From a phage: a stretch of 64,000 nucleotides of DNA. Shown here one piece after another: positions 8,942 to 61,402 of this stretch. How positions within the stretch are numbered: position 1 is the stretch's first letter; every line of letters starts with the position of its first letter. The notes under the pieces are model-generated. The model did not search any database. It had not been told where the DNA came from and saw only the letters and a program-made list of their open reading frames with translations. The stretch is from assembly GCA_027337125.1 (NCBI GenBank), contig GCA_027337125.1_3057.1. One strand, 5' to 3'. The position numbers and the translations under genes were made by a program.

Positions 8942-8943
8942 TA

Positions 8944-8985: not shown

Positions 8986-9004
8986 TAATCGTGGAGAAAA
9001 GAAA

Positions 9005-9259: not shown

Positions 9260-9316
9260 TTTACTTTTGTTGGAAATTGAGATACTATATAAACATAAAC
9301 TACTGAGGAGATTATC

Positions 9317-9610: not shown

Positions 9611-9622
9611 TTAGAGGCTAAT

Positions 9623-9787
9623 ATGAAAACGTTTAAAGAATTTATCAAAGAAGATATGGTCGCTGGAGATTCAGGTGGTAATCCTGAAAATATCTCTACT
9701 GGAACAACGTCAGGCGCTGTAGTAAATAAAGGTCCTGAACAGATTCCTAAAAAGAAAAAAGAGGAATCTAAAGAAAAAGAAGAGTAA
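9623..9787 (+). CDS. Hypothetical small protein (54 aa, lysine/glutamate-rich tail), not in ORF track
   Basis: ATG with AGAGG RBS fills the gap between sp and primase. Confidence 0.4.
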   Translation: MKTFKEFIKEDMVAGDSGGNPENISTGTTSGAVVNKGPEQIPKKKKEESKEKEE

Positions 9788-23997: not shown

Positions 23998-24049
23998 AGC
24001 TTTATGATTACCGGAGTATAATATTCCCGAAACCAAACGAGGATAAGTG

Positions 24050-25867
24050 ATGATTAAGAATGAAATTAAAATTCTGAGCGATATTGAACATATCAAAAAG
24101 CGTAGCGGCATGTACATTGGTTCTTCTGCTAATGAAATGCATGAGCGCTTTCTGTTTGGTAAATGGGAAAGTGTTCAGTATGTACCTGGTCTTGTTAAGC
24201 TTATTGATGAAATTATCGATAACTCAGTAGATGAAGGTATTCGTACTAAGTTTAAATTCGCGAATAAAATTAATGTTACTATTAAAAACAATCAAGTAAC
24301 AGTTGAAGATAACGGTCGTGGTATTCCACAAGCGATGGTTAAAACACCTACTGGTGAAGAAATTCCTGGTCCTGTTGCTGCCTGGACTATTCCAAAAGCA
24401 GGTGGTAACTTCGGTGATGATAAAGAACGCGTCACTGGCGGTATGAACGGTGTTGGTTCTAGTTTAACTAACATTTTTTCTGTGATGTTTGTCGGTGAAA
24501 CTGGCGACGGTCAAAATAATATTGTAGTTCGTTGTTCAAATGGCATGGAAAATAAATCATGGGAAACTATTCCTGGAAAATGGAAGGGAACACGTGTTAC
24601 TTTCATTCCTGATTTTATGTCATTTGAAACTAATGAGCTATCTCAAGTTTATCTTGACATTACATTAGATCGCCTCCAGACACTTGCAGTAGTTTATCCT
24701 GATATTCAATTTACCTTTAATGGTAAAAAGGTTCAGGGTAATTTTAAGAAATATGCACGCCAATATGATGAGCATGCTATCGTTCAAGAACAGGAAAATT
24801 GCTCTATTGCGGTTGGTCGTTCACCGGATGGTTTTCGTCAATTAACATACGTCAATAACATTCATACTAAGAATGGTGGTCATCACATTGACTGTGTTAT
24901 GGATGATATTTGTGAAGACCTTATTCCACAAATCAAACGTAAGTTCAAAATTGATGTAACTAAAGCACGTGTTAAAGAATGTTTGACTATCGTTATGTTT
25001 GTCCGTGATATGAAAAACATGCGATTTGATTCTCAAACTAAAGAGCGTTTGACTTCTCCATTTGGTGAAATTCGTAGTCATATTCAGCTTGATGCTAAAA
25101 AGATTTCACGTGCTATTTTAAATAATGAAGCAATTTTAATGCCAATTATTGAAGCTGCTTTGGCTCGTAAATTGGCGGCAGAAAAAGCAGCAGAAACTAA
25201 AGCAGCTAAAAAGGCTTCTAAAGCTAAGGTTCATAAACATATTAAAGCGAATCTTTGTGGTAAAGATGCTGACACTACTCTTTTCTTGACTGAGGGTGAT
25301 TCGGCTATTGGGTATCTTATTGATGTTCGTGATAAAGAACTTCATGGTGGTTATCCATTACGTGGTAAAGTTCTCAACAGCTGGGGTATGTCATATGCTG
25401 ATATGCTTAAAAATAAAGAACTGTTTGATATTTGCGCAATCACTGGATTAGTTCTTGGTGAAAAAGCCGAAAACTTGAATTATCATAATATTGCTATTAT
25501 GACTGACGCTGACCACGATGGTCTAGGAAGCATTTATCCTTCTCTGCTCGGATTTTTTAGTAATTGGCCAGAACTGTTTGAACAAGGAAGAATTCGCTTT
25601 GTCAAAACTCCTGTAATCATCGCTCAGGTCGGTAAAAAACAAGAATGGTTTTATACAGTCGCTGAATATGAGAGTGCCAAAGATGCTCTACCTAAACATA
25701 GCATCCGTTATATTAAAGGACTTGGCTCTTTGGAAAAATCTGAATATCGTGAGATGATTCAAAACCCAGTATATGATGTTGTTAAACTTCCTGAGAATTG
25801 GAAAGAGCTTTTTGAAATGCTCATGGGAGATAATGCTGACCTTCGTAAAGAATGGATGAGCCAGTAG
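24050..25867 (+). CDS. 39: DNA topoisomerase II large subunit gp39, unsplit form (605 aa)
   Basis: GHKL ATPase, TOPRIM (EGDSA, DADHDG), KGLG and C-terminal LMGD motifs all in one ORF; no separate gene 60. Confidence 0.9.
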   Translation: MIKNEIKILSDIEHIKKRSGMYIGSSANEMHERFLFGKWESVQYVPGLVKLIDEIIDNSVDEGIRTKFKFANKINVTIKNNQVTVEDNGRGIPQAMVKTPTGEEIPGPVAAWTIPKAGGNFGDDKERVTGGMNGVGSSLTNIFSVMFVGETGDGQNNIVVRCSNGMENKSWETIPGKWKGTRVTFIPDFMSFETNELSQVYLDITLDRLQTLAVVYPDIQFTFNGKKVQGNFKKYARQYDEHAIVQEQENCSIAVGRSPDGFRQLTYVNNIHTKNGGHHIDCVMDDICEDLIPQIKRKFKIDVTKARVKECLTIVMFVRDMKNMRFDSQTKERLTSPFGEIRSHIQLDAKKISRAILNNEAILMPIIEAALARKLAAEKAAETKAAKKASKAKVHKHIKANLCGKDADTTLFLTEGDSAIGYLIDVRDKELHGGYPLRGKVLNSWGMSYADMLKNKELFDICAITGLVLGEKAENLNYHNIAIMTDADHDGLGSIYPSLLGFFSNWPELFEQGRIRFVKTPVIIAQVGKKQEWFYTVAEYESAKDALPKHSIRYIKGLGSLEKSEYREMIQNPVYDVVKLPENWKELFEMLMGDNADLRKEWMSQ

Positions 25868-36956: not shown

Positions 36957-37613
36957 TTATTTAGCCCTTCCTAATATTCTGGCCGCCTGAGCACATATTG
37001 ATTCAAGGCGGTCATTACTTATATGATCATTTCTATACCAGTACATGGTTATTGTTCCAGCATAGATATTATCCAAATTGAAATATGGACAACTGTACAT
37101 GTAGTTTATTTCGGGAGTAGGCTTTTTAGTTGGTAAAAAAGCAAATTTTGAGTTGGAATAATAATGACGTCCATTTAAATGAACTGTATATTCATCCATA
37201 GTTTTATCAACAGGATATCCTCCAAGTGATTTTTCACTTATTGTTGAAGGTAATTTTCCTTCATATGCTATAATATCGACAAAATAGTTTAAGTTTTTAG
37301 GGCGGAAAGAATACACCGCACTAAAGTCTGCCTCAGATGATATGTGAACTATCTGGAGTTGTTCCAGGGCGACAGATTCAAAGCGTGCATTTCTTTCCTT
37401 TTCAATAATTTCACTGTATGTTTCATACTTTGATTGCTTATAGTACTCAAAGAAACTATCTCCCCTATACCAAACAATCGCCATCATAAATAAAAGAATT
37501 ACGACAGCTACCCGGGAAGCAAGAACTTTCCCGGTAGCATTATCTTTGAACAAGCGATCTAGAACACCAAACAGAATACCAGAGGGCGAAAGTGATATTC
37601 TAGGTGCTGCCAT
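36957..37613 (-). CDS. t: Holin T
   Basis: 218 aa; matches T4 gpt; N-terminal TM then periplasmic domain; GGAGG RBS. Confidence 0.92.
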   Translation of the reverse strand: MAAPRISLSPSGILFGVLDRLFKDNATGKVLASRVAVVILLFMMAIVWYRGDSFFEYYKQSKYETYSEIIEKERNARFESVALEQLQIVHISSEADFSAVYSFRPKNLNYFVDIIAYEGKLPSTISEKSLGGYPVDKTMDEYTVHLNGRHYYSNSKFAFLPTKKPTPEINYMYSCPYFNLDNIYAGTITMYWYRNDHISNDRLESICAQAARILGRAK

Positions 37614-37632
37614 ATTACCTCCAATTTATCAA

Positions 37633-37640
37633 TATTTATA
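37633..37640 (-). promoter_or_regulatory. Late promoter TATAAATA for t
   Basis: Exact octamer on - strand about 20 nt upstream of t ATG. Confidence 0.7.
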
Positions 37641-37658
37641 ACTGAGAGGTATTATCGT

Positions 37659-38432
37659 TTAAATCCAGGAGCCGTAGATCGTGCCTGTAGCACCCCATGA
37701 CGGTGAACTTCCGAATACTGCTCTGCCAGGAGCACCACCGCCAGATCTAGATAAGTGATTACCCCATCCATCTCCGCCCCGACCTCCAGCATCACCGCCA
37801 TTGCCTCCGCCGAATTGGGAAGTGTAGCCGGCACCGCCCGGCGCGTCATAACTAGCATTACCACCCGGCCAATTAACGCCGCCTCCGCCGATGCCAAATG
37901 GTCTACCGCCACCGCCACCTGCTGTAGCATTTGGCGCCCAGCTATTCTTTAATGACACTGCACCACCACCGCCACCGCCTGATGCAATAACGCCATAGTT
38001 CCAAATACGAAGTCTTCCGCCGATATCATTTTGGATTACATCGCCGCCATTTGTGCCTGGGTTTCCATTTACGCTACCGTTACCACCTCGTCCCCACATA
38101 TGAACTCCACCATGAATATTCAAAGTAACATATTCATTTGGTGTATCTCCGTACATGAAGAATAAAGGAACGTCTCTAGAATATGATACCAAATTTCCAG
38201 TGATATTAAACACTATAGGTGCACTACCTGCCTCAAAACATCTATCTCGGAACCATTGACCATTGAAGTTATGGTCTGCTCCAAGTGTGTGAATTACTTC
38301 AACAGATCGACCTATCATATTACTCATCCAAAATGGAGTACCCATTCTTAATCGTTGGGCCGCGCCGCCCATCCAATTTTGTCCTGTATTAACTACTGCA
38401 GACGATCCTACCCACGGTCCTGTTACTGCCAT
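37659..38432 (-). CDS. 38: gp38 tail-fiber adhesin of the T2/T6 type (glycine-rich motifs separating variable segments)
   Basis: 257 aa; conserved N-terminus [20 protein letters not shown]; multiple poly-Gly stretches; GGAGG RBS. Confidence 0.88.
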
Positions 38433-38444
38433 ATAAACCTCCAA

Positions 38445-38458
38445 GGGGCCGAAGCCCC
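38445..38458 (-). other. UUCG hairpin (GGGGC-UUCG-GCCCC) between 37 and 38, immediately upstream of the gene 38 SD
   Basis: Perfect stem and tetraloop on - strand RNA; no U-tract. Confidence 0.55.
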
Positions 38459-38463
38459 TCTTA

Positions 38464-41400
38464 TTATTTTAACAATGATTTAACTAATGCTTTAAGTTCT
38501 TCAATTTCTGATTTAAGTTCCGCAATTTCTGCAGTATGCTCATTGATTGCAGCTGTATTTAAACCAATTACACCGTTATAGTTCAAACGAAGTAAAGCTT
38601 CGCCATCAGGGTCACCTTCAACTAATTCAGGCAAAATAGCTTGAACTTCTTGAGCTATCAAACCGGCGTTTGGTTCCCATTTCTGATTACCTTCTTCATC
38701 TAGGCCTCGCTTCTGCATATAAGTGTAACCATTAATTTTTGAAAGCTTCTCAGAAGCATTTTCAAATTTAACTAGGTCCTTTTTGACACGAATATCAGAG
38801 CGGACATAAACATCGCGGACATATGTTGAATAGTTGTCATTCGCCTGAACTAAATGACCATGAGAAATAACTGCTTTGCCAACTTCTGTCCACAAAGCAC
38901 CGTTTGTCTCCCAAAGGCCAGGATGAGAATGATAAGATGAAGACCATGAAGCTATATGCACTCCATTTGCAACCATATTGATTCGGCCGTCACCACCGTG
39001 AACTAATCCAGTATCATTATCACCAATAACAAGACACGGTCCAGTCCACACCGGGTCGCCACCACCAGCTGATAATCTTGCTCCGGTTTTAACCATGTTA
39101 GGAACATACATAACTCCATTGTGGTGAAATTCATAGATAGCTTGTGGGTCAGAACCGTTTTCCTGGTTACCTACACAAATAATACCTTGTGCCCAGTTAT
39201 TAGTAATGCGTCGCATACCAAAATCTACGCCGGAAAAATATCCTTCGTTAGTAATACCAGATTTTCCTTTAATAATAGGATAATAGCAGTCATTGCTGAC
39301 GGATCCAAAATCTACAAATATAGGAGCTTCTAAACCCCATTGGTCACCCCAGGCGCCAGATTTATGCGCAACCCATTGTGTACCGTTTATATGAAGGCGG
39401 TCTCTATTAAAATTAAATGTTCCTTGACCTTGAGGAGAAAGCGATATTTCGCCATTATTTGTTATGTATACACCGCCTTGTGTAATGTAACTATAAAAAC
39501 CTAGACCATTGTCGCCGCCGCCTTTGCCTATATACCAGTTACCTGTACCACCTACATCACTACGGATGTGCGATGAAGCACCCACGCCTGCAGTTAAAAC
39601 AAGGGCATCATTTCCAGCAGATAAAGTCAACTTACCGGTCATCGTATCGCCTTCTTTAGCAACACGAGTAGCTATCGCATCGCGAATATTTGTAGTGTCT
39701 CCCGCAGAAGTAAACGATTTCCAAATATCTGAGAAAATATTACCATTGCGAGCAATAGTAGCTTCACCGCCGCCGACCTGAACGTTATCGGGGAAATTAA
39801 CTGTACCATCAGCATTAAATCTTGATGTATGGCCCTGTGAACCATCTTCTTTCAGATGATGAATAACGAATGTACCCGAATTAATTTCAGTACCTAAAGA
39901 CCAAACGGCTTTACCATTTAAAAACTTCTGTTTAACAATAGGATAATATTTGCTTATAGCATCATCATCAATTTCCTGGAAAATAGGAGCCGCTTGAACA
40001 TATTGAATATCATAACCACCAGCGCCTGCGCCATGACCAGTAAATTTAATATAGCCGTTTGCCGCGAACGTATTGTAACTTGATTGTAAATCTGGAATAG
40101 TAACTTTACCAGTATCTAAAGCTATACTAAACGGGCGAAGTGGACCGATATCACCATTTTTACCTTCACCGTAAGCAGTTGGAATAATATGAAGACTGCC
40201 TTCTGAACGTCTAAAAATGGCTCCGTAATCATTATTCCAAATACGAAGACCATTAACAGCATTTGTAGTGATTTCGCCAAGGGTGTGAACTGCTCGGTCA
40301 ACCCAAATATCCTTTTTTGCAATAATATTTTCGTTAATTGTCTGTTGACCATTTAATACGGCTTCAACTGTATTATCTTTATTTCGTTGAATATAATGCA
40401 TCCATCCAATATCATCAGAAATTTCCATGACATTTTTACGGGTGCCTTCACTTGGATTAGTAAAAGTATTTCCCCAAACAGCTATATACATGTTATCAAC
40501 GGAGCTTTGACCCATGGTATAGCCTTTAAACATTAAAGTTGAATTATTATTTCTACCATCAATATTAACAGAACCGCCAATAACATCAATATTACCTGGA
40601 GTAACTAACAAACCGCCGTGAGTATTAATGTTTGTAGTACCTTTACCGCGGAAATAGTGATGATAATTACCGCCTTGATAATATCCTAAAAGAGTCTGAC
40701 CGTCACCGTATGCGTTATTATCATGGTAAGTAACAACAGTGGCTAATGCATAGTTTTCAGTCGGAGGAGTAGTTAAATCTGTTCCATTAGTAGAATATCC
40801 AGCTACAAATTTTCTTAGGCTAGTTGTTTCGCTAGGGCTAAATAAAAATGTTTTCGTTCCATTATTGACGCTGAAATAATATCCATCCTGATGCCATTTT
40901 AGCCCGGTATCATTATCGCCAAGAGAAATTGAAGCAGTCCCTAATTCAGAGTATCCTTTATTGCCACCAGGAGTACCAACAGAAATAGAATGGCCTGCTT
41001 TCAATCCACCGGACCAGGTAAACGACCAAAGATAGGCATCTAACCCGTCACCGGCGTACCAGGTTATCCCGTCGTTATCTTTAACTTCATGGAATATACC
41101 AGATCCTACGGCATTTCGCATAACACGGAGGTGGTTAATAGCCGTTTCGCTTTCTGCCAATGGAGTGTTATTTGCTAATGAAGATATATCATAATCGCCC
41201 GTCTTCTTCCCATCTGTAATAACTTTATCGGTCAGAATTTGTGGAGACGAAATAGATTTCCATGCTGATACTTCAGGTGAAGTAAATAGGCCACTGCCTG
41301 AAAATGCATAAGTGCTTTCATCACCAGCGGCGTAGTCTTGAACCCTGATATTAAGTACTTGTGTAGTTAAACCATCATTAGCCGGGGCATAAATGATTCC

Positions 41401-41793
41401 GCGTTCGCGACTATTGCCATCGAAAAAACGAACATGTGCTGTACCTGAACTTTTTGTAATAAGTTCACCGCCTTCGGTCATAATCTGCCCGGCGGCAATA
41501 ATATCGCGAGTTACTCGAGCAATACCAGTTAAATTAAAATTACCTGTCTGAGTGAAAGTGCCATTTAAAGTATAATCACCAGTTTGATTATAGTTTCCTG
41601 TATGAATAACATTCCCGTCAATGCTACCGCCTTTAGCAAAACCCAGATCAATAATATTTCCTTGGTCGTCTTTAGTAAAAAGTACGCGGTCTTTTAAGTT
41701 TATAGCCAATTCACCTTCGGCTAATACTGAAGCGGCAGGACGTGCTCCTGCAGTTTTGCTTCTTTTAAATTGTATTTGTTTTAAAGTAGCCAT
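38464..41793 (-). CDS. 37: Long tail fiber distal subunit gp37 with C-terminal intramolecular-chaperone-like domain
   Basis: 1109 aa; N-terminus matches T-even gp37; C-terminal RSDIRVKKD motif and coiled-coil tail resemble autoproteolytic chaperone domains. Confidence 0.9.
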
Positions 41794-41801: not shown

Positions 41802-42458
41802 TTAATAATAGCCGAAATCTTGAACAGAATCCTTAATAACAATTTGATCAAATCGTGGAACATGCGAAGGTTGAGATGCAGGATTCTGTGAAAAAAGGTT
41901 TGGCGCAGTTAAATTTCCTGTCATAGTATCTCCAGAGCGTAATACTCTAGAGTTTGCGTTTGCTGTAACAATATTTATTGCTCCATCAACATAATCTTTC
42001 CTTGTAAGGTCATAATTATTTACTGGAGATAATGAAGCTGCGCGTATTTGTGATGCTTCAATTACACCCTTTGAGCTAATATCTCCATTTCGCGTGTTAA
42101 TTACTACAGTTCTACCTGCTGTTCCTTGTGATGATTTAAAACCAATACCATACCACGAAACAATATCCATATTTGTAGTATCAAATGTTGCTCCATCATC
42201 ATTACCAGGATATATACCATTTCCAGAATTACTTGCTAATGGAATCGTTATTCCATTATTAAAAATTACTCTATTTAAATAAGTACCACCATTAGCTTTA
42301 GAAACGAAATCGTTATCAGCAGCTTGTGGTTTATTGTATTCTGAATATATTTTAAATGATTTATAGAGTACATCGTCACCGGCTGGATTCAATGGAAAAT
42401 TTCCTTGATGCCAAATGACAGAGCCTCCAGTTGTTGAACCTACTTTTAAATCAGCCAT
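41802..42458 (-). CDS. 36: Long tail fiber hinge protein gp36
   Basis: 218 aa; matches T4 gp36. Confidence 0.9.
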   Translation of the reverse strand: MADLKVGSTTGGSVIWHQGNFPLNPAGDDVLYKSFKIYSEYNKPQAADNDFVSKANGGTYLNRVIFNNGITIPLASNSGNGIYPGNDDGATFDTTNMDIVSWYGIGFKSSQGTAGRTVVINTRNGDISSKGVIEASQIRAASLSPVNNYDLTRKDYVDGAINIVTANANSRVLRSGDTMTGNLTAPNLFSQNPASQPSHVPRFDQIVIKDSVQDFGYY

Positions 42459-42482
42459 TGTATGCCCCTTTATTTTAATAGT

Positions 42483-42490
42483 ATTTATAA
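42483..42490 (-). promoter_or_regulatory. Late promoter TATAAATA for gene 36
   Basis: Exact octamer on - strand between 35 and 36. Confidence 0.65.
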
Positions 42491-42496
42491 AGAAAA

Positions 42497-42516
42497 AGGG
42501 AACCCGAAGGCTCCCT
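42497..42516 (-). terminator. UUCG hairpin plus U-rich tract after gene 35 (AGGGAGCC-UUCG-GGUUCCCU)
   Basis: 8-bp stem with one G-U pair on - strand RNA, followed by UUUUCUUU. Confidence 0.6.
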
Positions 42517-42520
42517 CAAT

Positions 42521-43647: not shown

Positions 43648-46600
43648 TTATTCAACCCATTCAAATTTAACCGTTTTATTCACTGGGTCAGGAATAATGC
43701 GAACATTACCAATTCGTAAGAAATCACGAATAGTAAGATTCCCCATTATAGCATTATCAGATGGTAAAGCACCGATATCAGACGGCTGAGGAGGGTTACC
43801 CCCATCAAATACCTGAACAAAACTTGACCAAGAGTTTTTGGTTTTCTGCCATGTGCGCGTCCAGCGAGTGGTGCGCGCTTCTGGGGTCGTTGGATAAGTA
43901 ATCCAATCTTGATAAAGCGAATCGAGTGTGTTACCAAACTGAGTCAATGTACCAGGAGATTTAACTTCTTCGCCACGTTCTAAGTATGGAAGTCCAGTCA
44001 CTTCATTAGTCTTTTCAACCATCTTAAAATAACCCGGGAACTGGTTATAAGTGGCTGAATCATTAATATCGATTGACCAGAATCCTACAGTATCAGATGT
44101 TGGCGCACGAGTATATAAATCAGAGGTTTTAGTGCCTTGAGAACGAATTCTCGAGTTGACAGTTAAACCACCTGAAGTTATAGTAGCACCTTTGGCAATG
44201 ATTAAGCTTTCACCAATTGTAACCTGACCAGATTGATTATTAATTGATAATGGACGTAATCCATTAAATCCACCAGTCTGATCACCAGATGCAGTAAGCA
44301 TAAAATAGGTGTTAGCAGCATCATTACGAATAAAGAATCCATAATCACCGTTTATTGCTCTAAAAGCATTCGACGATTTACTGATAAATTCGCCATTAGC
44401 AGTAACTGAACTACCGAATGTTGCAACGCCGTTCGCGTTCAAAGAACCTAAAGCATTCACATTTATTGGCATTACAGTACCATTAATGCTAAATGCTATA
44501 TTACCATCCGTATCGCGTTGAGAATAAAAGTGATAAGATGTTTCATCACTAACTTCAAATACGGTAGAACGTGTTGTGTTTGATTCCCCGCTAAATTGAT
44601 TCCCCCACACGCTGACTGTCATCGTTTGAGCCGGGTTCGTTCCAGTTTGAGGTCCTTTCTCAAAAATCAGACGAGTTGCTGTTCCATCAGTATTAGAAAT
44701 GGTTAGTGTACTATTTGCTGAAACTGATCCACCAAACGTAGCAGTACTAGATGATACAAGAGGGGCACCCAGATTCGTTTGTTGGGTTAAGGTTAGTGAA
44801 CCATTAACCGTTTGTGCAATATCCCTACGAATGAACTGAGATGAATTTAGACCATCCAGTAAATTACTATCTACGGCTTTTGCTTTTAACGGCAAATAAT
44901 TTGCTAATACACGGTTTAATTCATATGGCGATACTGCATAGCTATTTTTCTCGTATAATTCTAATGACTGGGTTGAACCAACTGTATCATTACCAACGAA
45001 TGTAATTGAACCAGATGAAGTTTTAACAAAACCTCTTACCAGGGTAGTAGCTGCCCAAGTAGGTTCACTCTGTACAATCCATTTTAAATTTTTTGGAGAT
45101 ACAGCAGTGTTCGCTGACGTTCCAGTCACAGTTTCAGACTGGGTTGCAACTTTAATAACACCTTCTTGTGCTTCGGTAGATTTAGTACCTAAAAGCTTTT
45201 TAGGAGTTATTAAAACATTATCTAATATTCCTGCAGCAGCTTCAACTTGTGTAGCTACACGAAGTGTACCACGTTGTGTCTCATTTGCTTCAAGAATATT
45301 AAGGGTATAATGGTCCCAGAGAGTTCCTGATTCAACTAATCCAGATAGAGCAACAACAGAAGTACGATCAGTACTATTAAATCTGGTTTTAATTTTTAAT
45401 GGTGTAGAGATACGAGTATCATCGACGCCTGCGTCGAATTCAACTTGTGTAGCAATTTCAGCTATACCACTTAAACTTTCAGTTGCTCTACGGTCATTTA
45501 AAGTTTTAGGAGTGACTGCACGAGTATAATCAGTTCCTGTATTAACTTCACTTTGCGTAGCAATTTCAATTAAACCAATTCTTGCATCAGTTGATGTCTT
45601 TTTATGTAACGTTTCTGGTGTTACAACCGCATTTGCCCATCCTTCTTGGCTTTGTCCAGCAATTACTTCACTTTCAACTGCTAAAATTACTGCACCTTGT
45701 TGTGTTGGAGTAGCTTTATACTGATCCAAAGCTTTAGGCGAAACAACTAAATTATTAGTGTTTTTATTATAAACGTTTGTACCATTTAATTCACGACTAG
45801 AAGCTGGAGTAGCTCCTGCGGTAGATACAAAGGTTACAATACCAGATAATGATTCAGAACCCTGACGAGCTTGAAGCTTTTTAGGAGTGATGATTGTAGT
45901 ATCATCAGTACCTGCATTAGTTTCTTGCTGCGTAGCAATTTCAGCGACACCTCTACGAGTTTCTGTAGCAGTTCTTTCATTCAGCTTTTTAGGGGTGATG
46001 ATAAGGTCATCAGCAAAAGAGAATGTGGTGTTCTGATTCACTTGAGCAGTTGTTGCTATTCTTGCAATACCTCTACGAGTTTCTGTAGCAGTACGATTAG
46101 CTAACGTTTCTGGAGTAATTGCCAATTCTTTTTGCGGAGAATTTTCTAAATCGGCATTAGCTTGAGCTTGTGTAGCTAAAGCAATTACGCCTAATCTCGC
46201 TCTAGTAGAATCATTTAAAGAATCAACTCTTTCTACAGTTGGAACGTTTTGCTGTACAACCCAGTATTTTCCATCAGAATCTTCTATATAAGCAAGCTCT
46301 AAAACTGGAACATAATTAGTTTCACCGTTAAAAACTAATTCTTGAACTGTAACCCACTCAGCTTCAGGCGGATATTCTGAGCGTTTTGGGAATTGCAGCA
46401 ATTGAACTGAAGAAGCAATTTTATCTTCATCAGCAGCTTTGATTTTAACTGTTTGTCCTTTTCTCATGTAATTCATGGAAATTTTAACAGTATCGCCAAT
46501 GGAAATATCGGTCGGAAGCTGAAGTTCAATTGTTTGAGTTGTTCCATTATTCGCACCAAATACCATAACTTCTTCGTTTGGACGAATATTAGAATTAGTT

Positions 46601-47554: not shown

Positions 47555-47562
47555 TATTTATA
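47555..47562 (-). promoter_or_regulatory. Late promoter TATAAATA for gene 34
   Basis: Exact octamer on - strand about 35 nt upstream of gene 34 ATG. Confidence 0.7.
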
Positions 47563-53703: not shown

Positions 53704-54252
53704 ATGAAACAATACCAAGATTTAATTAAAAATATCCTTGAAAACGGCTATGAAACCGATGACCGAACAGGCACAGGAACAATTGCTTTGTTTGGTACTA
53801 AATTGCGTTGGGATTTAACTAAAGGTTTTCCTGCAGTAACAACAAAAAAGCTCGCCTGGAATGCTTGTATTTCTGAGTTATTGTGGTTCTTATCAGGAAG
53901 TACTAACGTAAATGACCTGCGTCAGCGTACTCACGGGTCTTTAATTGCAGGGAAAACGATTTGGGATGAAAATTACGAAAAACAAGCAAAAGATTTAGGA
54001 TATCATAGCGGTGAGCTTGGCCCAATTTATGGAAAACAATGGCGTGATTTTGGCGGTGTAGACCAAATTGTAGAAGTTATTGATCGTATTAAAACATTTC
54101 CTAATGATAGACGCCAAATTGTTTCTGCGTGGAATCCGGCAGAACTTAAGCAGATGGCATTACCACCTTGTCATATGTTCTATCAGTTTAATGTTCGTAA
54201 TGGCTATTTGGATTTGCAGTGGTATCAACGATCAGTAGATGTTTTCTTGGGT
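53704..54252 (+). CDS. td: Thymidylate synthase, exon 1 (ends at ...DVFLG; 5' splice site after GGT)
   Basis: Matches ThyA N-terminal half; interrupted exactly where the T4 td intron sits. Confidence 0.93.
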
Positions 54253-55268
54253 TAATTGAGGCCTGAGTATAAGGTGACTTATACTTGTAATCTATCTAAA
54301 CGGGGAACCTCTCTAGTAGACAATCCCGTGCTAAATTGTAGGACTGCCCTTTAATAAATACTTCTATATTTAAAGAGGTATTTATGAAAAGCGGAATTTA
54401 TCAGATTAAAAATACTTTAAACAATAAAGTATATGTAGGAAGTGCTAAAGATTTTGAAAAGAGATGGAAGAGGCATTTTAAAGATTTAGAAAAAGGATGC
54501 CATTCTTCTATAAAACTTCAGAGGTCTTTTAACAAACATGGTAATGTGTTTGAATGTTCTATTTTGGAAGAAATTCCATATGAGAAAGATTTGATTATTG
54601 AACGAGAAAATTTTTGGATTAAAGAGCTTAATTCTAAAATTAATGGATACAATATTGCTGATGCAACGTTTGGTGATACATGTTCTACGCATCCATTAAA
54701 AGAAGAAATTATTAAGAAACGTTCTGAAACTGTTAAAGCTAAGATGCTTAAACTTGGACCTGATGGTCGGAAAGCTCTTTACAGTAAACCCGGAAGTAAA
54801 AACGGGCGTTGGAATCCAGAAACCTATAAGTTTTGTAAGTGCGGTGTTCGCATACAAACTTCTGCTTATACTTGCAGTAAATGCAGAAATCGTTCAGGTG
54901 AAAATAATTCATTCTTTAATCATAAGCATTCAGACATAACTAAATCTAAAATATCAGAAAAGATGAAAGGTAAAAAGCCTAGTAATATTAAAAAGATTTC
55001 ATGTGATGGGGTTATTTTTGATTGTGCAGCAGATGCAGCTAGACATTTTAAAATTTCGTCTGGATTAGTTACTTATCGTGTAAAATCTGATAAATGGAAT
55101 TGGTTCTACATAAATGCCTAACGACTATCCCTTTGGGGAGTAGGGTCAAGTGACTCGAAACGATAGACAACTTGCTTTAACAAGTTGGAGATATAGTCTG
55201 ATCTGCATGGTGACATGCAGCTGGATATAATTCCGGGGTAAGATTAACGACCTTATCTGAACATAATG
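54253..55268 (+). mobile_element. Group I self-splicing intron in td (1016 nt) carrying I-TevI
   Basis: Starts TAATTGAGGCCTGAGTATAAGGTGAC, ends ...CATAATG; length identical to T4 td intron; splicing restores the ThyA frame. Confidence 0.93.
54384..55121 (+). CDS. I-TevI: Homing endonuclease I-TevI (GIY-YIG) encoded within td intron
   Basis: 245 aa; MKSGIYQIKNTLNNKVYVGSAKDFEKRW GIY-YIG domain and C-terminal zinc-finger/HTH DNA-binding region; AAGAGG RBS. Confidence 0.95.
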   Translation: MKSGIYQIKNTLNNKVYVGSAKDFEKRWKRHFKDLEKGCHSSIKLQRSFNKHGNVFECSILEEIPYEKDLIIERENFWIKELNSKINGYNIADATFGDTCSTHPLKEEIIKKRSETVKAKMLKLGPDGRKALYSKPGSKNGRWNPETYKFCKCGVRIQTSAYTCSKCRNRSGENNSFFNHKHSDITKSKISEKMKGKKPSNIKKISCDGVIFDCAADAARHFKISSGLVTYRVKSDKWNWFYINA

Positions 55269-56147: not shown

Positions 56148-58402
56148 TTAATGTTATCAAAAGTAGTGGTGTTTCTCAGAGCTTTGACCCGCAAAAAATT
56201 ATTAAAGTTTTATCTTGGGCAGCTGAAGGAACATCAGTCGATCCTTATGAATTATATGAAAATATTAAATCTTATCTCCGTGATGGAATGACAACTGATG
56301 ATATTCAGACTATTGTCATTAAGGCCGCTGCGAATTCTATTTCAGTCGAAGAGCCTGATTATCAATATGTAGCTGCACGCTGTTTAATGTTCGCTCTTCG
56401 TAAGCATGTTTATGGGCAGTATGAACCGCGTTCATTTATTGACCATATTTCTTATTGCGTAAATGAAGGGAAATATGACCCTGAATTATTGTCAAAATAT
56501 TCTGCAGAAGAAATTACATTTTTAGAATCAAAAATTAAGCATGAGCGGGATATGGAATTTACTTATTCCGGGGCAATGCAATTAAAAGAAAAATATCTAG
56601 TTAAAGATAAAAGCACTGGTCAAATTTATGAAACTCCGCAGTTTGCATTTATGACTATCGGAATGGCATTGCACCAAGATGAACCTGTTGATAGATTAAA
56701 ACATGTTATCCGTTTTTATGAAGCAGTATCTACTCGACAGATTTCACTGCCAACTCCTATTATGGCTGGTTGTCGTACTCCGACTCGACAGTTTAGTTCA
56801 TGTGTTGTTATTGAGGCAGGTGATTCATTGAAGTCTATCAATAAGGCTTCTGCTTCAATTGTTGAATATATCTCTAAACGCGCTGGAATTGGTATTAACG
56901 TTGGTATGATTCGTGCCGAAGGTTCTAAGATTGGTATGGGCGAAGTACGACATACTGGTGTTATTCCTTTTTGGAAACATTTTCAGACTGCTGTTAAATC
57001 GTGTTCACAGGGTGGAATTCGTGGCGGCGCTGCTACTGCTTATTATCCTATTTGGCATTTGGAAGTTGAAAATCTTCTCGTTTTGAAAAATAACAAAGGC
57101 GTAGAAGAAAACCGTATCCGTCATATGGATTATGGTGTTCAGCTGAATGATTTGATGATGGAACGTTTTGGAAAGAACGATTACATTACTTTGTTCAGTC
57201 CACATGAAATGGGTGGCGAGCTTTATTATTCTTATTTTAAAGACCAAGACCGTTTCCGTGAATTATACGAAGCTGCAGAAAAAGACCCTAATATTCGTAA
57301 AAAGCGTATTAAAGCCCGTGAACTGTTTGAATTGCTCATGACTGAACGCTCAGGAACAGCAAGGATTTATGTGCAGTTCATTGATAATACGAATAACTAT
57401 ACTCCATTTATTCGTGAAAAGGCACCTATTCGTCAGAGTAACTTGTGCTGTGAAATTGCTATTCCAACAAATGATGTGAATAGTCCTGATGCTGAAATTG
57501 GATTATGCACTTTATCTGCATTTGTATTGGATAACTTCGATTGGCAAGACCAAGATAAAATTAATGAATTGGCAGAAGTTCAAGTTCGTGCTCTTGATAA
57601 TCTGTTGGATTACCAAGGATATCCAGTTCCTGAAGCAGAAAAAGCTAAAAAGCGTCGTAATCTTGGCGTAGGTGTTACTAACTATGCAGCTTGGCTGGCA
57701 AGTAACTTTGCTTCTTATGAAGATGCTAACGATTTAACACATGAACTATTTGAGAGATTACAGTATGGACTCATTAAAGCATCCATTAAGCTCGCCAAAG
57801 AAAAAGGACCTTGCGAATATTATTCAGACACTCGTTGGTCTCGAGGCGAATTACCTATCGACTGGTACAATAAAAAGATTGACCAAATCGCAGCTCCAAA
57901 ATACGTTTGTGATTGGTCGTCGCTGCGGGAAGACCTTAAGCTCTTTGGCATCCGTAATAGCACATTATCAGCACTTATGCCATGTGAGTCATCTTCCCAA
58001 GTTTCTAACAGTACAAACGGTATCGAGCCTCCACGTGGACCAGTCTCTGTTAAAGAATCAAAAGAGGGTTCCTTTAATCAAGTCGTGCCCAATATTGAAC
58101 ATAACATAGACCTCTATGATTATACATGGAAATTAGCTAAGAAAGGTAATAAACCGTATCTTACGCAGGTAGCTATTATGCTGAAATGGGTGTGTCAATC
58201 AGCTTCAGCGAATACATATTATGACCCCCAAATCTTCCCTAAAGGAAAGGTTCCAATGTCAATAATGATTGATGACATGCTATACGGATGGTATTATGGC
58301 ATTAAAAATTTCTATTATCATAATACCCGTGATGGTTCTGGTACTGATGATTATGAAATAGAAACTCCTAAAGCCGACGATTGTGCAGCGTGTAAATTGT
58401 AA
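56138..58402 (+). CDS. nrdA: Aerobic ribonucleotide reductase large subunit NrdA
   Basis: 754 aa; ATP-cone and class I RNR catalytic motifs; matches T4 NrdA. Confidence 0.95.
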   Translation: MQLINVIKSSGVSQSFDPQKIIKVLSWAAEGTSVDPYELYENIKSYLRDGMTTDDIQTIVIKAAANSISVEEPDYQYVAARCLMFALRKHVYGQYEPRSFIDHISYCVNEGKYDPELLSKYSAEEITFLESKIKHERDMEFTYSGAMQLKEKYLVKDKSTGQIYETPQFAFMTIGMALHQDEPVDRLKHVIRFYEAVSTRQISLPTPIMAGCRTPTRQFSSCVVIEAGDSLKSINKASASIVEYISKRAGIGINVGMIRAEGSKIGMGEVRHTGVIPFWKHFQTAVKSCSQGGIRGGAATAYYPIWHLEVENLLVLKNNKGVEENRIRHMDYGVQLNDLMMERFGKNDYITLFSPHEMGGELYYSYFKDQDRFRELYEAAEKDPNIRKKRIKARELFELLMTERSGTARIYVQFIDNTNNYTPFIREKAPIRQSNLCCEIAIPTNDVNSPDAEIGLCTLSAFVLDNFDWQDQDKINELAEVQVRALDNLLDYQGYPVPEAEKAKKRRNLGVGVTNYAAWLASNFASYEDANDLTHELFERLQYGLIKASIKLAKEKGPCEYYSDTRWSRGELPIDWYNKKIDQIAAPKYVCDWSSLREDLKLFGIRNSTLSALMPCESSSQVSNSTNGIEPPRGPVSVKESKEGSFNQVVPNIEHNIDLYDYTWKLAKKGNKPYLTQVAIMLKWVCQSASANTYYDPQIFPKGKVPMSIMIDDMLYGWYYGIKNFYYHNTRDGSGTDDYEIETPKADDCAACKL

Positions 58403-59133
58403 TGAATTATCAAAAAATCTATAATGACCTAATTTCCCGAGCTCAGGCTCGGGAACCTTTATCTGAATATAAAGAGACACATCATATAGTCCCTAAATGC
58501 ATGGGAGGTTCTGATGATAAAGAAAATTTAGTTGAATTAACGGCTAGAGAACATTTTATAGCGCATCTATTACTATGTAAGATAAATGAAGGCCATTTTG
58601 GGCTTGCCTCTGCGTTAACGTTAATGGCAACAGATAAAGCTGGTAATAGAATTAATAACAGATTGTATAGCTTGCACAGAAAATTATTTGCTAAAGCTAA
58701 TTCTGATTTCTTTAAGAAATATTGGAAAAATAATCCTCATCCTAGAGGAATGTTAGGCAAGCATCATAAAAACGAAACTAAACAACATGTATCAAACGTG
58801 AATAGGTATGCATGCCCATCTATCGAAATACATAAATTCTCATTAGATGGGGATTTCATAGAAACCTTTCACTCTATTGCGGCAGCGTCCAGGTCAGTTA
58901 ATGGAAACGGGTCAAATATCAAATATTGTGCTGAGGGTAAATTTCAATATGCCTATGGATTTAGATGGTCATATCAACTTGATACAAAGTTTGATAAAAT
59001 ACAACCAAGAGATTATAAAGGAATCCGCGGTAAGAAATGGATTAATAACGGAAGTGAATGCACGCTTATAGGTAAAGATGATATTATACCGCCAGGTTGG
59101 AAACGCGGCAGAATTTTAAAGAGGAAAAATTAA
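58402..59133 (+). CDS. mobE: Free-standing HNH homing endonuclease MobE between nrdA and nrdB
   Basis: 243 aa; HNH motif ETHHIVPKCMGGSDDKENLVELTAREH; ATGA/TAATG coupling to both neighbours. Confidence 0.8.
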   Translation: MNYQKIYNDLISRAQAREPLSEYKETHHIVPKCMGGSDDKENLVELTAREHFIAHLLLCKINEGHFGLASALTLMATDKAGNRINNRLYSLHRKLFAKANSDFFKKYWKNNPHPRGMLGKHHKNETKQHVSNVNRYACPSIEIHKFSLDGDFIETFHSIAAASRSVNGNGSNIKYCAEGKFQYAYGFRWSYQLDTKFDKIQPRDYKGIRGKKWINNGSECTLIGKDDIIPPGWKRGRILKRKN

Positions 59134-59808
59134 TGTCTACAGTTTTTAATACAAATCCAGTTAATATTTTGACTGAGCCAATGTTTTTTGGTTCTGGATT
59201 AGGTTTAGCTCGATATGATATTCAACGGCATCGAGTATTTGAAGAACTTATTGAGAAGTCTTTATCATTTTTCTGGCGTCCTGAAGAAGTAAACTTAATG
59301 ATGGATGCTGCACAATTTAATAAACTTCCTCAGTATCAGCAAAATATTTTTACTAATAACCTGAAGTATCAATCACTTTTGGATAGCATTCAGGGTCGTG
59401 CACCGTCTGCTGTACTTATGTCATTAATTTCAGACCCAAGCCTTGATACATGGGTTGCAACATGGACATTCAGTGAAACTATTCACTCTCGTTCGTATAC
59501 TCATATTATGCGAAATCTTTATACTGATCCATCAAAGGTATTTGATGAGATTGTATTAGATAAAGCTATTATGAAACGTGCTGAATCTATTGGTCGCTAT
59601 TACGATGATGTTCTGATTAAAACCCGCGAATGGGAAAATGCTAAAGAATTTGTAGAACTAGCTAAAGAATCTCCTGATGCTGTCTTTCGTTTAAACCGAG
59701 CTATTAAACAAGAAGCCGAAGCTAAACGTGCTTTAATGAAATCTCTTTACCTCTGTTTGCACGTTATTAATGCCTTAGAAGCTATTCGTTTTTATGTATC
59801 TTTTGCGT
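59133..59808 (+). CDS. nrdB: Ribonucleotide reductase small subunit NrdB, exon 1 (ends ...RFYVSFA + T of Cys codon)
   Basis: Matches RNR R2 N-terminal part; AGAGGA RBS; frame interrupted at conserved SFAC site. Confidence 0.9.
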
Positions 59809-59894
59809 AAAATGCGCCTTTAAACGGTAACGTTTATCGAAAACTCCTTTAATTGCTGGAAAGTCCTTTATAGGAAAACTAGCAGCCAAGGTTT

Positions 59895-59926
59895 TGCTTG
59901 CACCTTTAATTAGTATAATATAAATA
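59895..59926 (+). promoter_or_regulatory. Stacked candidate middle (MotA box TGCTTGCA + TATAAT) and late (TATAAATA 59919-59926) promoters inside nrdB intron upstream of I-TevIII
   Basis: Exact late octamer; TGCTT box 19 nt upstream of TATAAT. Confidence 0.5.
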
Positions 59927-59953
59927 TGATTATACTTTTAAGAGGATGCACAA

Positions 59954-60763
59954 TTGAACTATAGAAAAATTTGGATAGATGCCAACGGACCTATACCTAA
60001 AGATTCTGATGGAAGAACATACGAAATCCATCATAAAGACGGTAACCGTGAAAATAATGATTTAGATAATTTGATGTGTCTTTCTATACAGGAACATTAT
60101 GATATACATTTAGCTCAAAAAGACTACCAGGCTTGTCATGCTATAAAGCTCAGAATGAAATATTCTCCTGAAGAAATTTCTGAATTAGCTTCTAAAGCCG
60201 CAAAATCTAGAGAAATCCAGGTTTTTAATATCCCTGAAGTACGAGCTAAAAATATTGCCTCTATTAAATCTAAGATAGAAAATGGTACATTTCATCTTTT
60301 AGGTGGTGAAATACAACGTAAATCTAATTTAAATAGAGTTGCATTAGGTATACATAATTTTCAACAAGCTGAGCATGTTGCAAAAGTTAAAGAACGCAAT
60401 ATTGCAGCTATAAAAGAAGGTACTCATGTATTTTGCGGTGGTAAAATGCAGTCAGAAACTCAATCAAAACGGGTAAATGACGGTTCACATCATTTCTTAT
60501 CAGAAGACCATAAGAAAAGAACATCAGCAAAAACATTAGAAATGGTTAAGAACGGGACTCATCCTGCACAAAAAGAAATCACATGTGATTTCTGTGGTCA
60601 TATTGGTAAAGGTCCTGGATTTTATCTAAAACATAATGACAGATGCAAATTAAATCCAAATAGAATTCAATTGAATTGCCCGTATTGTGAAAAGAAAGAT
60701 TTATCACCATCGACGTATAAAAGATGGCACGGCGACAATTGCAAAGCAAGGTTCAACGACTAG
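59954..60763 (+). CDS. I-TevIII: HNH homing endonuclease I-TevIII (full-length, 269 aa; TTG start inferred)
   Basis: HNH motif EIHHKDGNRENNDLDNL...H; C-terminal zinc finger CDFCGH...CPYCEK; AGAGGA RBS 7 nt upstream of TTG. Confidence 0.8.
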   Translation: MNYRKIWIDANGPIPKDSDGRTYEIHHKDGNRENNDLDNLMCLSIQEHYDIHLAQKDYQACHAIKLRMKYSPEEISELASKAAKSREIQVFNIPEVRAKNIASIKSKIENGTFHLLGGEIQRKSNLNRVALGIHNFQQAEHVAKVKERNIAAIKEGTHVFCGGKMQSETQSKRVNDGSHHFLSEDHKKRTSAKTLEMVKNGTHPAQKEITCDFCGHIGKGPGFYLKHNDRCKLNPNRIQLNCPYCEKKDLSPSTYKRWHGDNCKARFND

Positions 60764-60899
60764 TCTTCGGACGTAGGGTCAAGCGACTCGAAATGGGGAG
60801 AATCCCTCCGGGATTGTGATATAGTCTGGTCTGCATGGTAACATGCAGCAGTTCATAAGAGAACGGGTTGAGAATTAGCGAGCTCAATCGAACATAACG

Positions 60900-61402
60900 G
60901 TACCTTTAACTTCCATAAGAACATGGAAATCATGGAAGGTAATGCCAAGATTATGAAGTTCATTGCACGTGATGAGCAGCTTCACCTTAAAGGCACTCAA
61001 TATATTATTCGTCAGCTTCAATCCGGTACTGATGGTGATGAATGGGTTAAAATTGCTCAAGAGTGTGAACAAGAAGCAGTTGATATTTTCATGGAAGTTA
61101 ACCGTCAAGAAAAAGACTGGGCAGTTCATTTATTTAAAGATGGCGATGTTCCTGGATTAAATACAAATAGCATGTGGAGCTTTATTGATTACTTAACTGT
61201 ATCTCGTATGAAACAGTGTGGTCTTCCATGCCCAATTACCGATGCTCCGGTTAAACACCCATATCCTTGGATTCGTGAATATCTTAATTCTGATAATGTT
61301 CAATCCGCGCCACAAGAAGTAGAACTGTCATCTTACCTTGTTGCACAGATTGATAATGATGTTGATGATAAAGTTATGATGAGTTTTAAAAAATACTTTT
61401 AA
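60900..61402 (+). CDS. nrdB: Ribonucleotide reductase small subunit NrdB, exon 2
   Basis: (C)TFNFHKNMEIMEGNAKIMKFIARDEQLHL... continues R2; joined product about 392 aa. Confidence 0.9.

Follow-up and report, generated by a model that had tools for sequence, protein, structure and literature searches.

A T-even gp37-gp38 host-range cassette with an RB51/RB69-type tip adhesin and a probable OmpF receptor

Layout of the locus

The window, i.e., the whole stretch of 64,000 nucleotides of phage DNA that we analyzed, carries genes 36, 37, 38, and t in this order on the minus strand. The features of the locus are the following:

36957..37613, minus strand: gene t (holin), which adjoins gene 38 on its downstream side (Pfam Phage_holin_T, 1.8e-116)
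37633-37640: late promoter of gene t, its own
37659..38432, minus strand: gene 38, stop codon included, encoding the 257-aa tail-fibre tip adhesin (receptor-recognizing protein), assigned from Pfam, PDB, and homologues
38444..38459, minus strand: intercistronic hairpin AGGGGC-UUCG-GCCCCU, between the stop of gene 37 (UAAUAA) and the Shine-Dalgarno sequence of gene 38
38464..41793, minus strand: gene 37, stop codon included, encoding the 1109-aa precursor of the distal long-tail-fibre subunit
41802..42458, minus strand: gene 36, encoding the 218-aa hinge connector, which opens the 36-37-38 late transcription unit (Pfam Phage_T4_gp36)
42482..42489, minus strand: T4-type late promoter, TATAAATA, 5' of gene 36

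Gene 38 lies between gene 37, immediately upstream, and t, a layout that relatives have too, and is co-transcribed with genes 36 and 37. A late promoter is annotated at the equivalent place, upstream of gene 36, in a relative, and no T4-type late promoter motif was found directly 5' of gene 37 or gene 38. The hairpin between genes 37 and 38 is conserved among relatives; Bas47 and fPS-2/-90 have variants of it that preserve the stem. A scan of the entire 64-kb window against Rfam, at the gathering cutoffs, gave zero matches. The ATG of gene 38 is found 5 nt past a GGAGG and gives the protein of 257 aa; the longer ORF in the program-made list (261 aa) uses an upstream TTG that falls within the Shine-Dalgarno sequence.

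The gp38 adhesin

Two domains of gp38 are needed for what follows:

38313..38432, minus strand: gp38 codons 1-40, the N-terminal attachment domain (Gp38_N match to residues 1-40), with Trp7, Trp20, and Trp35
37662..38093, minus strand: gp38 codons 114-257, the glycine-rich receptor-binding domain (polyglycine-II sandwich), which is also the GC-rich island (35% Gly, GC 0.56)

The protein matches two Pfam models over their full length, GP38 (PF05268; 1e-82, 277.7 bits for a cutoff of 25, profile 1-218 of 218) and Gp38_N (PF21721; 9.5e-22, 77.2 bits for a cutoff of 25, profile 1-40 of 40). Among PDB entries, it matches gp38 of PP01 (9V85, E 2e-74) and gp38 of S16 (6F45_D, E 7e-51). The exact sequence is already present in NCBI (EKH7476279.1), where it is named receptor-recognizing protein. 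Given the solved structures 9V85 and 6F45 and the 900+ phage records, the assignment of gp38 and gp37 to their families is settled.

The initial annotation, made from the letters alone, had described gp38 as a glycine-rich protein of 257 aa with a conserved N-terminus. This holds, with exact coordinates: 65 of the 257 residues are glycines and the N-terminus is covered by the full-length Gp38_N match. Of the 15 runs of at least two glycines in gp38, 12 are in residues 114-257, where short non-glycine segments separate them, and in a sequence-level alignment these runs match column for column those of T2, T6, and the sequences of the PP01 and S16 crystal structures. A GC-rich island produced by glycine codons had also been placed at 37700-38000, and we recover it, with a GC content of 56-59% against a mean of 35.5%. 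In windows of 200 nt, the values range from 0.50 to 0.595 across 37600-38099, for 0.355 in the whole window. Glycine codons (25 GGC, 24 GGT, and 16 GGA) explain most of the rise, and the non-glycine codons of the segment are also somewhat raised (GC 0.43).

One might have expected gp38 to be, as in T4, a mere assembly chaperone that is not part of the virion, with gp37 bearing the receptor-binding tip. T4 has the same locus, a homologous gp36, and a homologous N-terminal gp37 shaft, but its gp37 has its own receptor-binding tip and lacks the S74 domain. The gp38 of T4 is a chaperone without relation to the adhesin, and it is not found in virions (PMC6851490). Several GenBank relatives of our gp38 are still labelled 'distal long tail fiber assembly catalyst', but these are legacy name transfers, as the note in the RB69 record itself states. 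In the Pfam search, gp38 matched only the adhesin models GP38 and Gp38_N, and the T4-type assembly-chaperone or tail-fibre-assembly family was absent. Likewise, a full-length PDB search with gp37 returned S16 gp37 and gp34 structures, the T4 receptor-binding tip was absent from the matches, and the protein has an S74 chaperone domain at its end instead. We consider a T4-like arrangement extremely improbable, and the earlier proposal that gp38 is a receptor-binding adhesin rather than the T4 chaperone is upheld by the two Pfam models and by 9V85 and 6F45.

The three tryptophans of the attachment domain (W7, W20, and W35) align with W7, W20, and W36 of S16 gp38. Conserved tryptophans of this domain insert into the tip of the gp37 trimer, and in the S16 structure a gp37 trimer holds a gp38 monomer via three of them, the adhesin having ten glycine-rich motifs and five distal loops (PMC6851490). 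Our module resembles that of this Salmonella phage (PDB 6F45) in the three-domain gp38, the three tryptophan prongs, the pattern of glycine-rich motifs, and the cleavage motif and chaperone domain of gp37. It differs in that the two gp38 are only 48% identical overall, loop B of S16 is 5 residues shorter, and the loops are different.

The closest modules are those of RB51, RB68, RB69, and FL31 (OmpF-type; Tequatrovirus and Mosigvirus). Their gp38 have equal length, are 96-98% identical to ours, and have the same attachment domain; these modules also share our intergenic hairpin, letter for letter, and the order 36-37-38-t. Their gp37 has 1103 aa instead of 1109 and is 85-90% identical to ours. 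A megablast search of complete E. coli genomes with the module gave a distant prophage copy as its only match. Compared with RB51, gp38 is 98% identical and shows 35 synonymous for 5 non-synonymous codon differences, which indicates strong purifying selection. Relative to RB51-type proteins, the substitutions are T120S, Q162K, I32T, D80N, and K86R.

The gp37 shaft and its C-terminal domain

Three parts of gp37 can be delimited:

38467..38799, minus strand: gp37 codons 999-1109, a 111-aa intramolecular chaperone (Peptidase S74, PF13884), predicted to be autocleaved before Ser999
38800..41793, minus strand: gp37 codons 1-998, the predicted mature fibre shaft, ending in ...RDVYVR998, from the alignment to S16 gp37
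40123..40446, minus strand: gp37 codons 450-557, a module common to the C-terminal trimerization domain of gp34 (PF21446; gp34 structures 4UXE/5NXF)

The Pfam matches of gp37 are Peptidase_S74 and Gp34_trimer, the former over residues 999-1058 of 1109 (PF13884, 48.5 bits for a cutoff of 22). The chaperone region also aligns with S16 gp37 (6F45_A, E 9e-36) across the whole chaperone domain of the latter, and gives weak matches to the self-cleaving domain of MYRF and to another phage tail fibre. It is identical (100%) to that of RB51, RB68, FL31, and PP01, and 98% identical to that of RB69. The last ~28 residues have a heptad-like hydrophobic spacing and align, at the level of sequence, with the tail of the S16 chaperone. 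The C-terminus of gp37 had been likened to autoproteolytic intramolecular chaperones, in good agreement with the S74 match and the S16 alignments. The same annotation had gp37 ending with an RSDIRVKKD motif: the motif is present, at residues 998-1006, but it does not close the protein, since it lies 111 residues from the C-terminus and starts the C-terminal domain.

The stretch VYVR^SDIRVKK aligns with the cleavage site of S16 gp37, DLNVS^SDRRIKK, which was mapped by experiment (PMC7917993). The S-D-x-R-x-K spacing of Ser and Lys+5 is present (S999-D-I-R-V-K1004), as in Ser1264/Lys1269 of T5 pb1, and the motif (D/N)VY(V/I)R^SD is conserved in the gp37 of RB51, FL31, RB69, PP01, Bas47, fPS-2, T2, and T6. 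A literature search for Ser911/Lys916 returned nothing. From the homologues, we predict that gp37 is cut at R998^S999 by a Ser999/Lys1004 dyad. This C-terminal domain, predicted to be self-cleaving, is akin to those of K1F endosialidase and T5 pb1 (Peptidase S74) in the scissile serine, the lysine at +5, and possibly the terminal coiled-coil helix. In those proteins the upstream fibre domains are unrelated and the cleaved tip is an enzyme or a receptor binder, whereas here the predicted cleavage would open a place where another protein, the adhesin, can dock. If the S74 domain were degenerate and non-cleaving, it could be kept in the mature fibre, with gp38 attached elsewhere. We give this very little credence: Ser999 and Lys1004 are intact, the domain is invariant in RB51, FL31, and PP01, and the S16 and T2 homologues do undergo cleavage (PMC7917993, PMC3157838). 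In phages of the T2 type, gp38 caps gp37 after the latter has been processed (PMC3157838), and the strand at the end of mature gp37 is the docking face of gp38 (PMC7917993).

Over its whole length, gp37 is most similar to that of FL31 (90.5%), EC128 (90.1%), PP01 (88.7%), and RB51 (87.6%). The most divergent block spans residues ~441-520 and overlaps the gp34-like module: the windows 451-500 and 481-520 are only 42-52% identical to gp37 of the RB51, FL31, and PP01 types. We considered a gene conversion from gp34 to gp37 and rejected it, since gp37 of MLF4, SfPhi01, and Ec_O157kw matches this block with 98.8% identity. A second divergent block, at ~931-1000, is 95-97% identical to gp37 of Jbel, ECP52, and Ac3. 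At these two places (441-520 and ~931-1000) the protein is of the MLF4/Ac3 type, unlike RB51, RB68, RB69, and FL31. On the basis of these alignments, gp37 is a block mosaic of known alleles, i.e., a case of ordinary allele mosaicism.

Receptor prediction and modular exchange

The positions of gp38 on which the receptor prediction depends are three codons of the receptor-binding domain:

37815..37817, minus strand: CAA at codon 206 (Gln), part of HVS3/loop D, retained as in RB51
37947..37949, minus strand: AAG at codon 162 (Lys), part of receptor loop B (HVS2), where relatives have CAG (Gln)
38073..38075, minus strand: AGC at codon 120 (Ser), where receptor loop A (HVS1) begins; RB51-type relatives have Thr

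The initial annotation had assigned the locus to the T2/T6 type and proposed to align the variable segments of gp38 with characterized adhesins. We made this alignment against T2, T6, and others, and it yields the prediction of OmpF. The architecture is indeed that of T2 and T6, with the same adhesin family, the same gene order, and a YIR^SD.RLK motif ~113-118 residues from the end of gp37. The allele is not: the receptor-binding domain is 56% identical to that of T2 (FadL/OmpF) and 49% to that of T6 (Tsx), and the gp37 shafts have other lengths (1341 aa in T2 and 994 aa in T6). It is instead 97-99% identical to the domains of RB51, RB69, FL31, EC128, Bas47, fPS-2, and fPS-90, i.e., of the RB51/RB69 OmpF type. 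Compared with typed OmpF binders, 142 of the 144 residues are the same, including all of HVS3 and HVS4 as well as Gln206, and the two that differ are T120S and Q162K.

The receptor of RB51 determined by RB-TnSeq is OmpF, and the change Q206L in its gp38 moves the receptor from OmpF to OmpW (bioRxiv 10.64898/2026.04.02.716166). Reported receptors are OmpF, FhuA, and LPS core for RB51/RB69, OmpF and LPS core for Bas47, and OmpF and LPS for fPS-2/-90 (PMC7917993). With a loop set of the RB51/RB69 type, the adhesin most likely uses OmpF, a porin of E. coli, as its primary receptor, judging from these homologues, and would also depend on LPS core.

The same architecture might serve another main receptor than the OmpF of K-12, if T120S and Q162K retarget the adhesin to OmpW, FadL, OmpC, or an OmpF allele, or make it depend more on LPS. 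Counting against the OmpF call, both changes are located in distal loops, A and B, and loop B is essential for adsorption in PP01 gp38. Single loop changes are known to switch the receptor in this family, as Q206L does, and as do the few residues by which PST differs from T6 and SV76 from T2. Residue 162 maps to loop B of PP01 (Q161-V170), and T2 gp38 reads SLKNS at the aligned position, a motif that K162 recreates and that belongs to a phage using FadL/OmpF. Furthermore, FL31, the nearest relative of the whole module, has a weak OmpF/TolC dependence, the effect of OmpF being just 1 log. Yet the near-identity to experimentally typed OmpF binders extends over HVS3, HVS4, and Gln206; T120S is conservative and Ser120 is also found in gp38 of UPEC01 (P0004); and K162 recurs in a deposited coliphage, NHEP11. 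We therefore find it unlikely that the main receptor has changed, and equally doubtful that the two substitutions, with their T2-like SLKNS, alter or widen the specificity toward another OmpF allele, FadL, OmpW, or a stronger LPS dependence. Were this the case, it would be the second natural one-residue receptor switch in an RB51-type adhesin, after Q206L.

Lys162 is rare among the sequences that we inspected. Residue 162 is a glutamine in 16 of 17 other RB51-type (OmpF-allele) gp38, the exception being an ambiguous X in fPS-2. A megablast search of GenBank phages with the 63-nt stretch around codon 162 found it exact in NHEP11 only, among 41 records, and we found nothing on this phage in the literature. 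In IMG/VR, two DNA patterns for the allele, one degenerate and one near-exact, had zero matches, so this collection seems to be without it.

The features, family matches, structure alignments, and near-identity to receptor-typed adhesins are direct observations, and they can be assembled into a mechanism. gp37 would form a trimeric beta-helical fibre, its folding aided by its own C-terminal chaperone of 111 residues. In a correctly formed trimer, Lys1004 would activate Ser999 to cut the R998-S999 bond; with the chaperone gone, three DVYVR strands would be exposed as a flat, hydrophobic tip. A single gp38 monomer would then dock in this tip via Trp7, Trp20, and Trp35, and its polyglycine-II sandwich would form the distal extremity of the fibre, where five short loops would bind the receptor. 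A gp38 monomer at the tip of the virion fibre is established for S16 and T2-type phages (PMC6851490, PMC3157838), and we infer from these homologues the 3:1 assembly of gp37 and gp38 and the presence of gp38 in the virion. Hence, we regard it as very probable that genes 36-37-38 are a late-transcribed Tequatrovirus host-range cassette of the T2/T6/S16 kind, with a self-processed gp37, a gp38 tip adhesin, and OmpF as the likely receptor; none of our results speaks against this architecture. The gp37-gp38 module is an ordinary, well-studied T-even host-recognition cassette and as such already known: earlier work covers the mechanism and structures of this adhesin family as well as what determines its receptors, and no new question is raised. 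The new element is the receptor call (OmpF), the rest of the interpretation being textbook for this group of phages. In practice, a confident prediction of the host receptor from sequence (OmpF and LPS core) is of value for the design of phage cocktails with complementary receptors.

The comparisons above also reveal which parts of the cassette travel together. The attachment domain of gp38 co-varies with the tip and chaperone of gp37, and the receptor-binding domain swaps independently. In PP01, gp37 also has 1109 aa, with an identity to ours of 93% in the beta-helix domain and 100% in the chaperone; for the attachment domain of gp38 the value is 80%. The receptor-binding domain of PP01 (9V85) is different, with 54-56% identity, and its loops D and E bind the OmpC of O157. 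In line with the known modular evolution of these fibres, exchange is independent for the receptor-binding domain of gp38, for its attachment domain paired with the gp37 tip, and for blocks within the shaft of gp37. Bas47 shows the reverse of the PP01 pattern, with a near-identical receptor-binding domain and a divergent attachment domain: the latter is 98% identical to ours in RB51/FL31 and only 57-59% in Bas47/fPS-2.

Architecture of the gene 37-38 module

The interval 37659-41793, which the initial annotation had singled out as a host-range module of the T2/T6 type, coincides exactly with two adjacent genes on the minus strand:

37659-38432, minus strand: gene 38 (gp38, 257 aa), with an ATG start 5 nt after GGAGG
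38464-41793, minus strand: gene 37 (gp37, 1109 aa), as given in the ORF listing

The listing also gives a longer, 261-aa reading of gene 38, which begins at a TTG within the GGAGG Shine-Dalgarno. In Pfam, gp38 matched two adhesin models, GP38 over the whole profile (1e-82) and Gp38_N (9.5e-22), and no further family. gp38 also aligns with two proteins solved by crystallography, the PP01 receptor-binding domain (9V85, 2e-74) and S16 gp38 (6F45_D, 7e-51). Its Trp7, Trp20 and Trp35 occupy the aligned positions of the S16 tryptophans, and the pattern of glycine-rich motifs is also that of S16. The protein has 65 glycines; residues 114-257 are 35% glycine and contain 12 of its 15 runs of at least two glycines (the longest has six), with short non-glycine segments between them. 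These matches, alignments and runs bear out the glycine-rich adhesin architecture that had been proposed for gp38. The GC-rich island attributed to glycine codons was also recovered: GC content is 0.50-0.595 in 200-nt windows across 37600-38099, against 0.355 window-wide, mostly because of these codons, and the non-glycine codons of the glycine-rich segment are slightly GC-richer as well (0.43).

The glycine-rich motifs give rise to short direct repeats (11-25 nt) in the DNA of gene 38. Two out-of-frame or antisense ORFs lie within the glycine-rich part of the gene. They are not genes, and the high content of Ala, Val, Pro, Thr and Ser in their products is what a by-product of GGN-repeat DNA would be expected to show:

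37652-37930, minus strand: 92-aa ORF
37755-37952, plus strand: 65-aa ORF

In gp37, Pfam identified a gp34-like trimerization module (residues 450-557) and Peptidase_S74 (residues 999-1058), and the C-terminal 190 residues can be aligned with those of S16 gp37 (6F45_A, 8e-44). The RSDIRVKKD motif reported earlier is present, but it does not end the protein as had been stated: it opens the C-terminal domain, at residues 998-1006, 111 residues from the protein end. The S16 cleavage site DLNVS^SDRRIKK has RDVYVR^SDIRVKK as its aligned counterpart here, the gp37 proteins of T2 and T6 have the same motif equally distant from their C-terminal ends, and Ser999/Lys1004 match the arrangement of Ser1264/Lys1269 in T5 pb1. 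The peptidase match, the site alignment and this residue pair argue for the suggested likeness to autoproteolytic intramolecular chaperones. The defining features of the gp38 adhesin and S74 chaperone families that can be assessed from sequence all appear to be present. In the T4-type arrangement gp38 is an assembly chaperone and gp37 carries its own tip. This alternative fails, as neither feature was found: gp38 matched adhesin models only (GP38 and Gp38_N in Pfam), as the initial annotation had anticipated, and a PDB search with gp37 gave no match to the T4 gp37 tip structure.

In S16, trimerization of gp37 is followed by self-cleavage: the bond joining the two serines of the site is cut, which splits off the intramolecular chaperone (the last 113 residues) and exposes the gp38 docking surface (PMC7917993). 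In T5 pb1, Ser1264 is scissile and activated by Lys1269, and a trimeric coiled coil forms the end of the domain (PMC4690869). T2-type gp37 undergoes processing, after which gp38 caps it (PMC3157838). In the S16 structure, one gp38 monomer sits on the gp37 trimer via three conserved tryptophans, its ten glycine-rich motifs form a polyglycine-II sandwich, and host range is set by the five hypervariable loops at the distal end (PMC6851490). By analogy, the gp37 of the window would trimerize and its chaperone self-cleave before Ser999, with Lys1004 activating. The cleaved tip would then dock gp38 at a gp37:gp38 ratio of 3:1, placing gp38 at the fibre tip of the virion, attached through Trp7, Trp20 and Trp35.

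Predicted receptor

The alignment with T2 and T6 adhesins that had been proposed for predicting the receptor placed gp38 in the same family, but its receptor-binding domain is not of their type. Residues 114-257 are only 49-56% identical to the domains of T6, PP01, S16 and T2, against 97-99% for seven phages: RB51, RB69, FL31, EC128, Bas47 (AlbertHofmann), fPS-2 and fPS-90. RB69 and RB51 use OmpF, FhuA and the full LPS core (PMC3157838), and RB-TnSeq also gave OmpF for RB51 (bioRxiv 10.64898/2026.04.02.716166). The receptors are OmpF and LPS core for Bas47 (PMC8594841), and OmpF and LPS, in Yersinia, for fPS-2 and fPS-90 (PMC7917993); the OmpF/TolC dependence of FL31 is weak (PMC12032242).

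A single substitution, Q206L, redirects RB51 from OmpF to OmpW (bioRxiv 10.64898/2026.04.02.716166), and Gln206 is kept here with the RB51 codon, CAA. Relative to RB51, gene 38 has 35 synonymous and 5 non-synonymous codon differences (I32T, D80N, K86R, T120S and Q162K). T120S and Q162K correspond in position to loops A and B of PP01, and loop B is required for PP01 adsorption. Despite these two changes, the near-identity to OmpF-typed adhesins together with Gln206 leads us to predict, with good confidence, that the receptor is OmpF. A shifted or broadened specificity seems unlikely. Lys162 results from a single C-to-A change. Of the 17 other RB51-type (OmpF-allele) gp38 sequences inspected, 16 have Gln (fPS-2 has an ambiguous X), and a megablast against GenBank phages found the variant in NHEP11 (1 of 41 records). 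IMG/VR scans with DNA patterns for this allele gave no match. With Lys162, loop B has the motif SLKNS, and T2 gp38 has SLKNS at the aligned position too.

The gp38 of RB68 in GenBank (KM607004; positions 360-1133 of that locus) is identical to that of RB51, including Gln206. Since the 2026 preprint attributes the OmpW specificity of RB68 to Leu206 (bioRxiv 10.64898/2026.04.02.716166), the GenBank record and the sequenced laboratory stock therefore differ at this residue.

Modularity and known relatives

The gp37 has no single close relative (FL31 90.5%, EC128 90.1%, PP01 88.7% and RB51 87.6% identity). It is a patchwork: for every 40-residue block a near-identical known allele exists. The two blocks unlike RB51-type fibres occur in MLF4/SfPhi01-type and Jbel/ECP52/Ac3-type gp37. 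The attachment domain of gp38 (residues 1-40) is 98% identical to RB51 and FL31 and 80% to PP01, and the chaperone domain is 100% identical in all three. For Bas47 and fPS-2 the attachment domain is 57-59% identical, and the chaperone domains only 61% and 32%, respectively. The OmpF-type receptor-binding domain is common to both groups. In these alignments, the attachment domain co-varies with the tip and the chaperone of gp37, a pattern of modular exchange that Trojet et al. 2011 described.

Residues 418-567 of gp37 (40093-40542, minus strand) have a homologous counterpart in gp34, its C-terminal trimerization region at residues ~949-1102 (44215-44676, minus strand), and match gp34 crystal structures at about 1e-15, an internal duplication common to the proximal and distal half-fibres. 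Gene conversion from gp34 was considered as the source of a divergent gp37 block and rejected, as the block occurs in MLF4/SfPhi01-type gp37.

The initial interpretation is supported, yet it is textbook biology. The exact gp38 sequence has an NCBI entry, EKH7476279.1. It is named there "receptor-recognizing protein [Escherichia coli]" and comes from a 170,267-bp contig, and its cluster at 90% identity has 123 members; the exact gp37 sequence is also on record. The contig is probably a lytic T-even genome assembled within a bacterial-isolate sequencing project rather than a phage submission. A megablast of the module against 5,426 complete E. coli genomes gave one match only, a distant copy in a chromosomal prophage of ETEC4085 (NZ_CP122634), where a complete T-even-type module (positions 5549-9787 of the comparison locus) adjoins tail-tube and capsid genes. 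It encodes a 1139-aa tail fibre (Gp34_trimer and Peptidase_S74) and, next to it, a 260-aa GP38 adhesin that shares 63% identity with the gp38 of the window and has a PP01-like receptor-binding domain.

Transcription signals and mobile elements

The window is ~95% identical overall to Tequatrovirus genomes, e.g., RB3. Genes 37-38 are flanked by gp36, gp35 and gp34 upstream and by the t holin downstream. T4-type late promoters TATAAATA precede genes 34, 36 and t, but none was found before gene 37 or gene 38, so that genes 36-37-38 make up a single late transcription unit.

47555-47562: late promoter of gene 34
42496-42517, minus strand: terminator-like UUCG-loop hairpin and T-run, 35/36 intergenic region
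42482-42489, minus strand: late promoter TATAAATA of gene 36, directly after this hairpin and T-run
38444-38459, minus strand: stable hairpin AGGGGC-UUCG-GCCCCU, after the UAAUAA stop of gene 37 and ahead of the Shine-Dalgarno of gene 38
37633-37640: late promoter of t

The 37/38 hairpin is identical in RB51, FL31, RB69, EC128 and PP01; Bas47 has GGGCC-UUCG-GGCCC, with the stem preserved, and fPS-2/-90 have GGGGC-UUU-GCCCC, with a shorter loop. Its fold z-score is only -2.1; a role in mRNA stability or translational coupling is possible.

The mobile-element content of the window lies at 53704-55121 and 58402-61402 (plus strand); a gathering-threshold Rfam scan of the whole window gave no hits, group I introns included.

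53704-54255, plus strand: ORF that we take to be td exon 1, followed, within 53704-55121, by a full I-TevI ORF (245 aa; GIY-YIG, zinc finger and DNA-binding domains)
58402-59133, plus strand: NUMOD1 ORF between nrdA and nrdB
59097-59810 and 60923-61402, plus strand: nrdB in two parts, split by a 269-aa HNH endonuclease ORF (59954-60763; I-TevIII-like)

Elsewhere in the window, a single uninterrupted ORF of 606 aa encodes the topoisomerase II large subunit (gene 39; 24047-25867, plus strand; HATPase_c, DNA_gyraseB, TOPRIM_C), the unsplit T2/T6-like form, whereas T4 has the gene 39/60 split.
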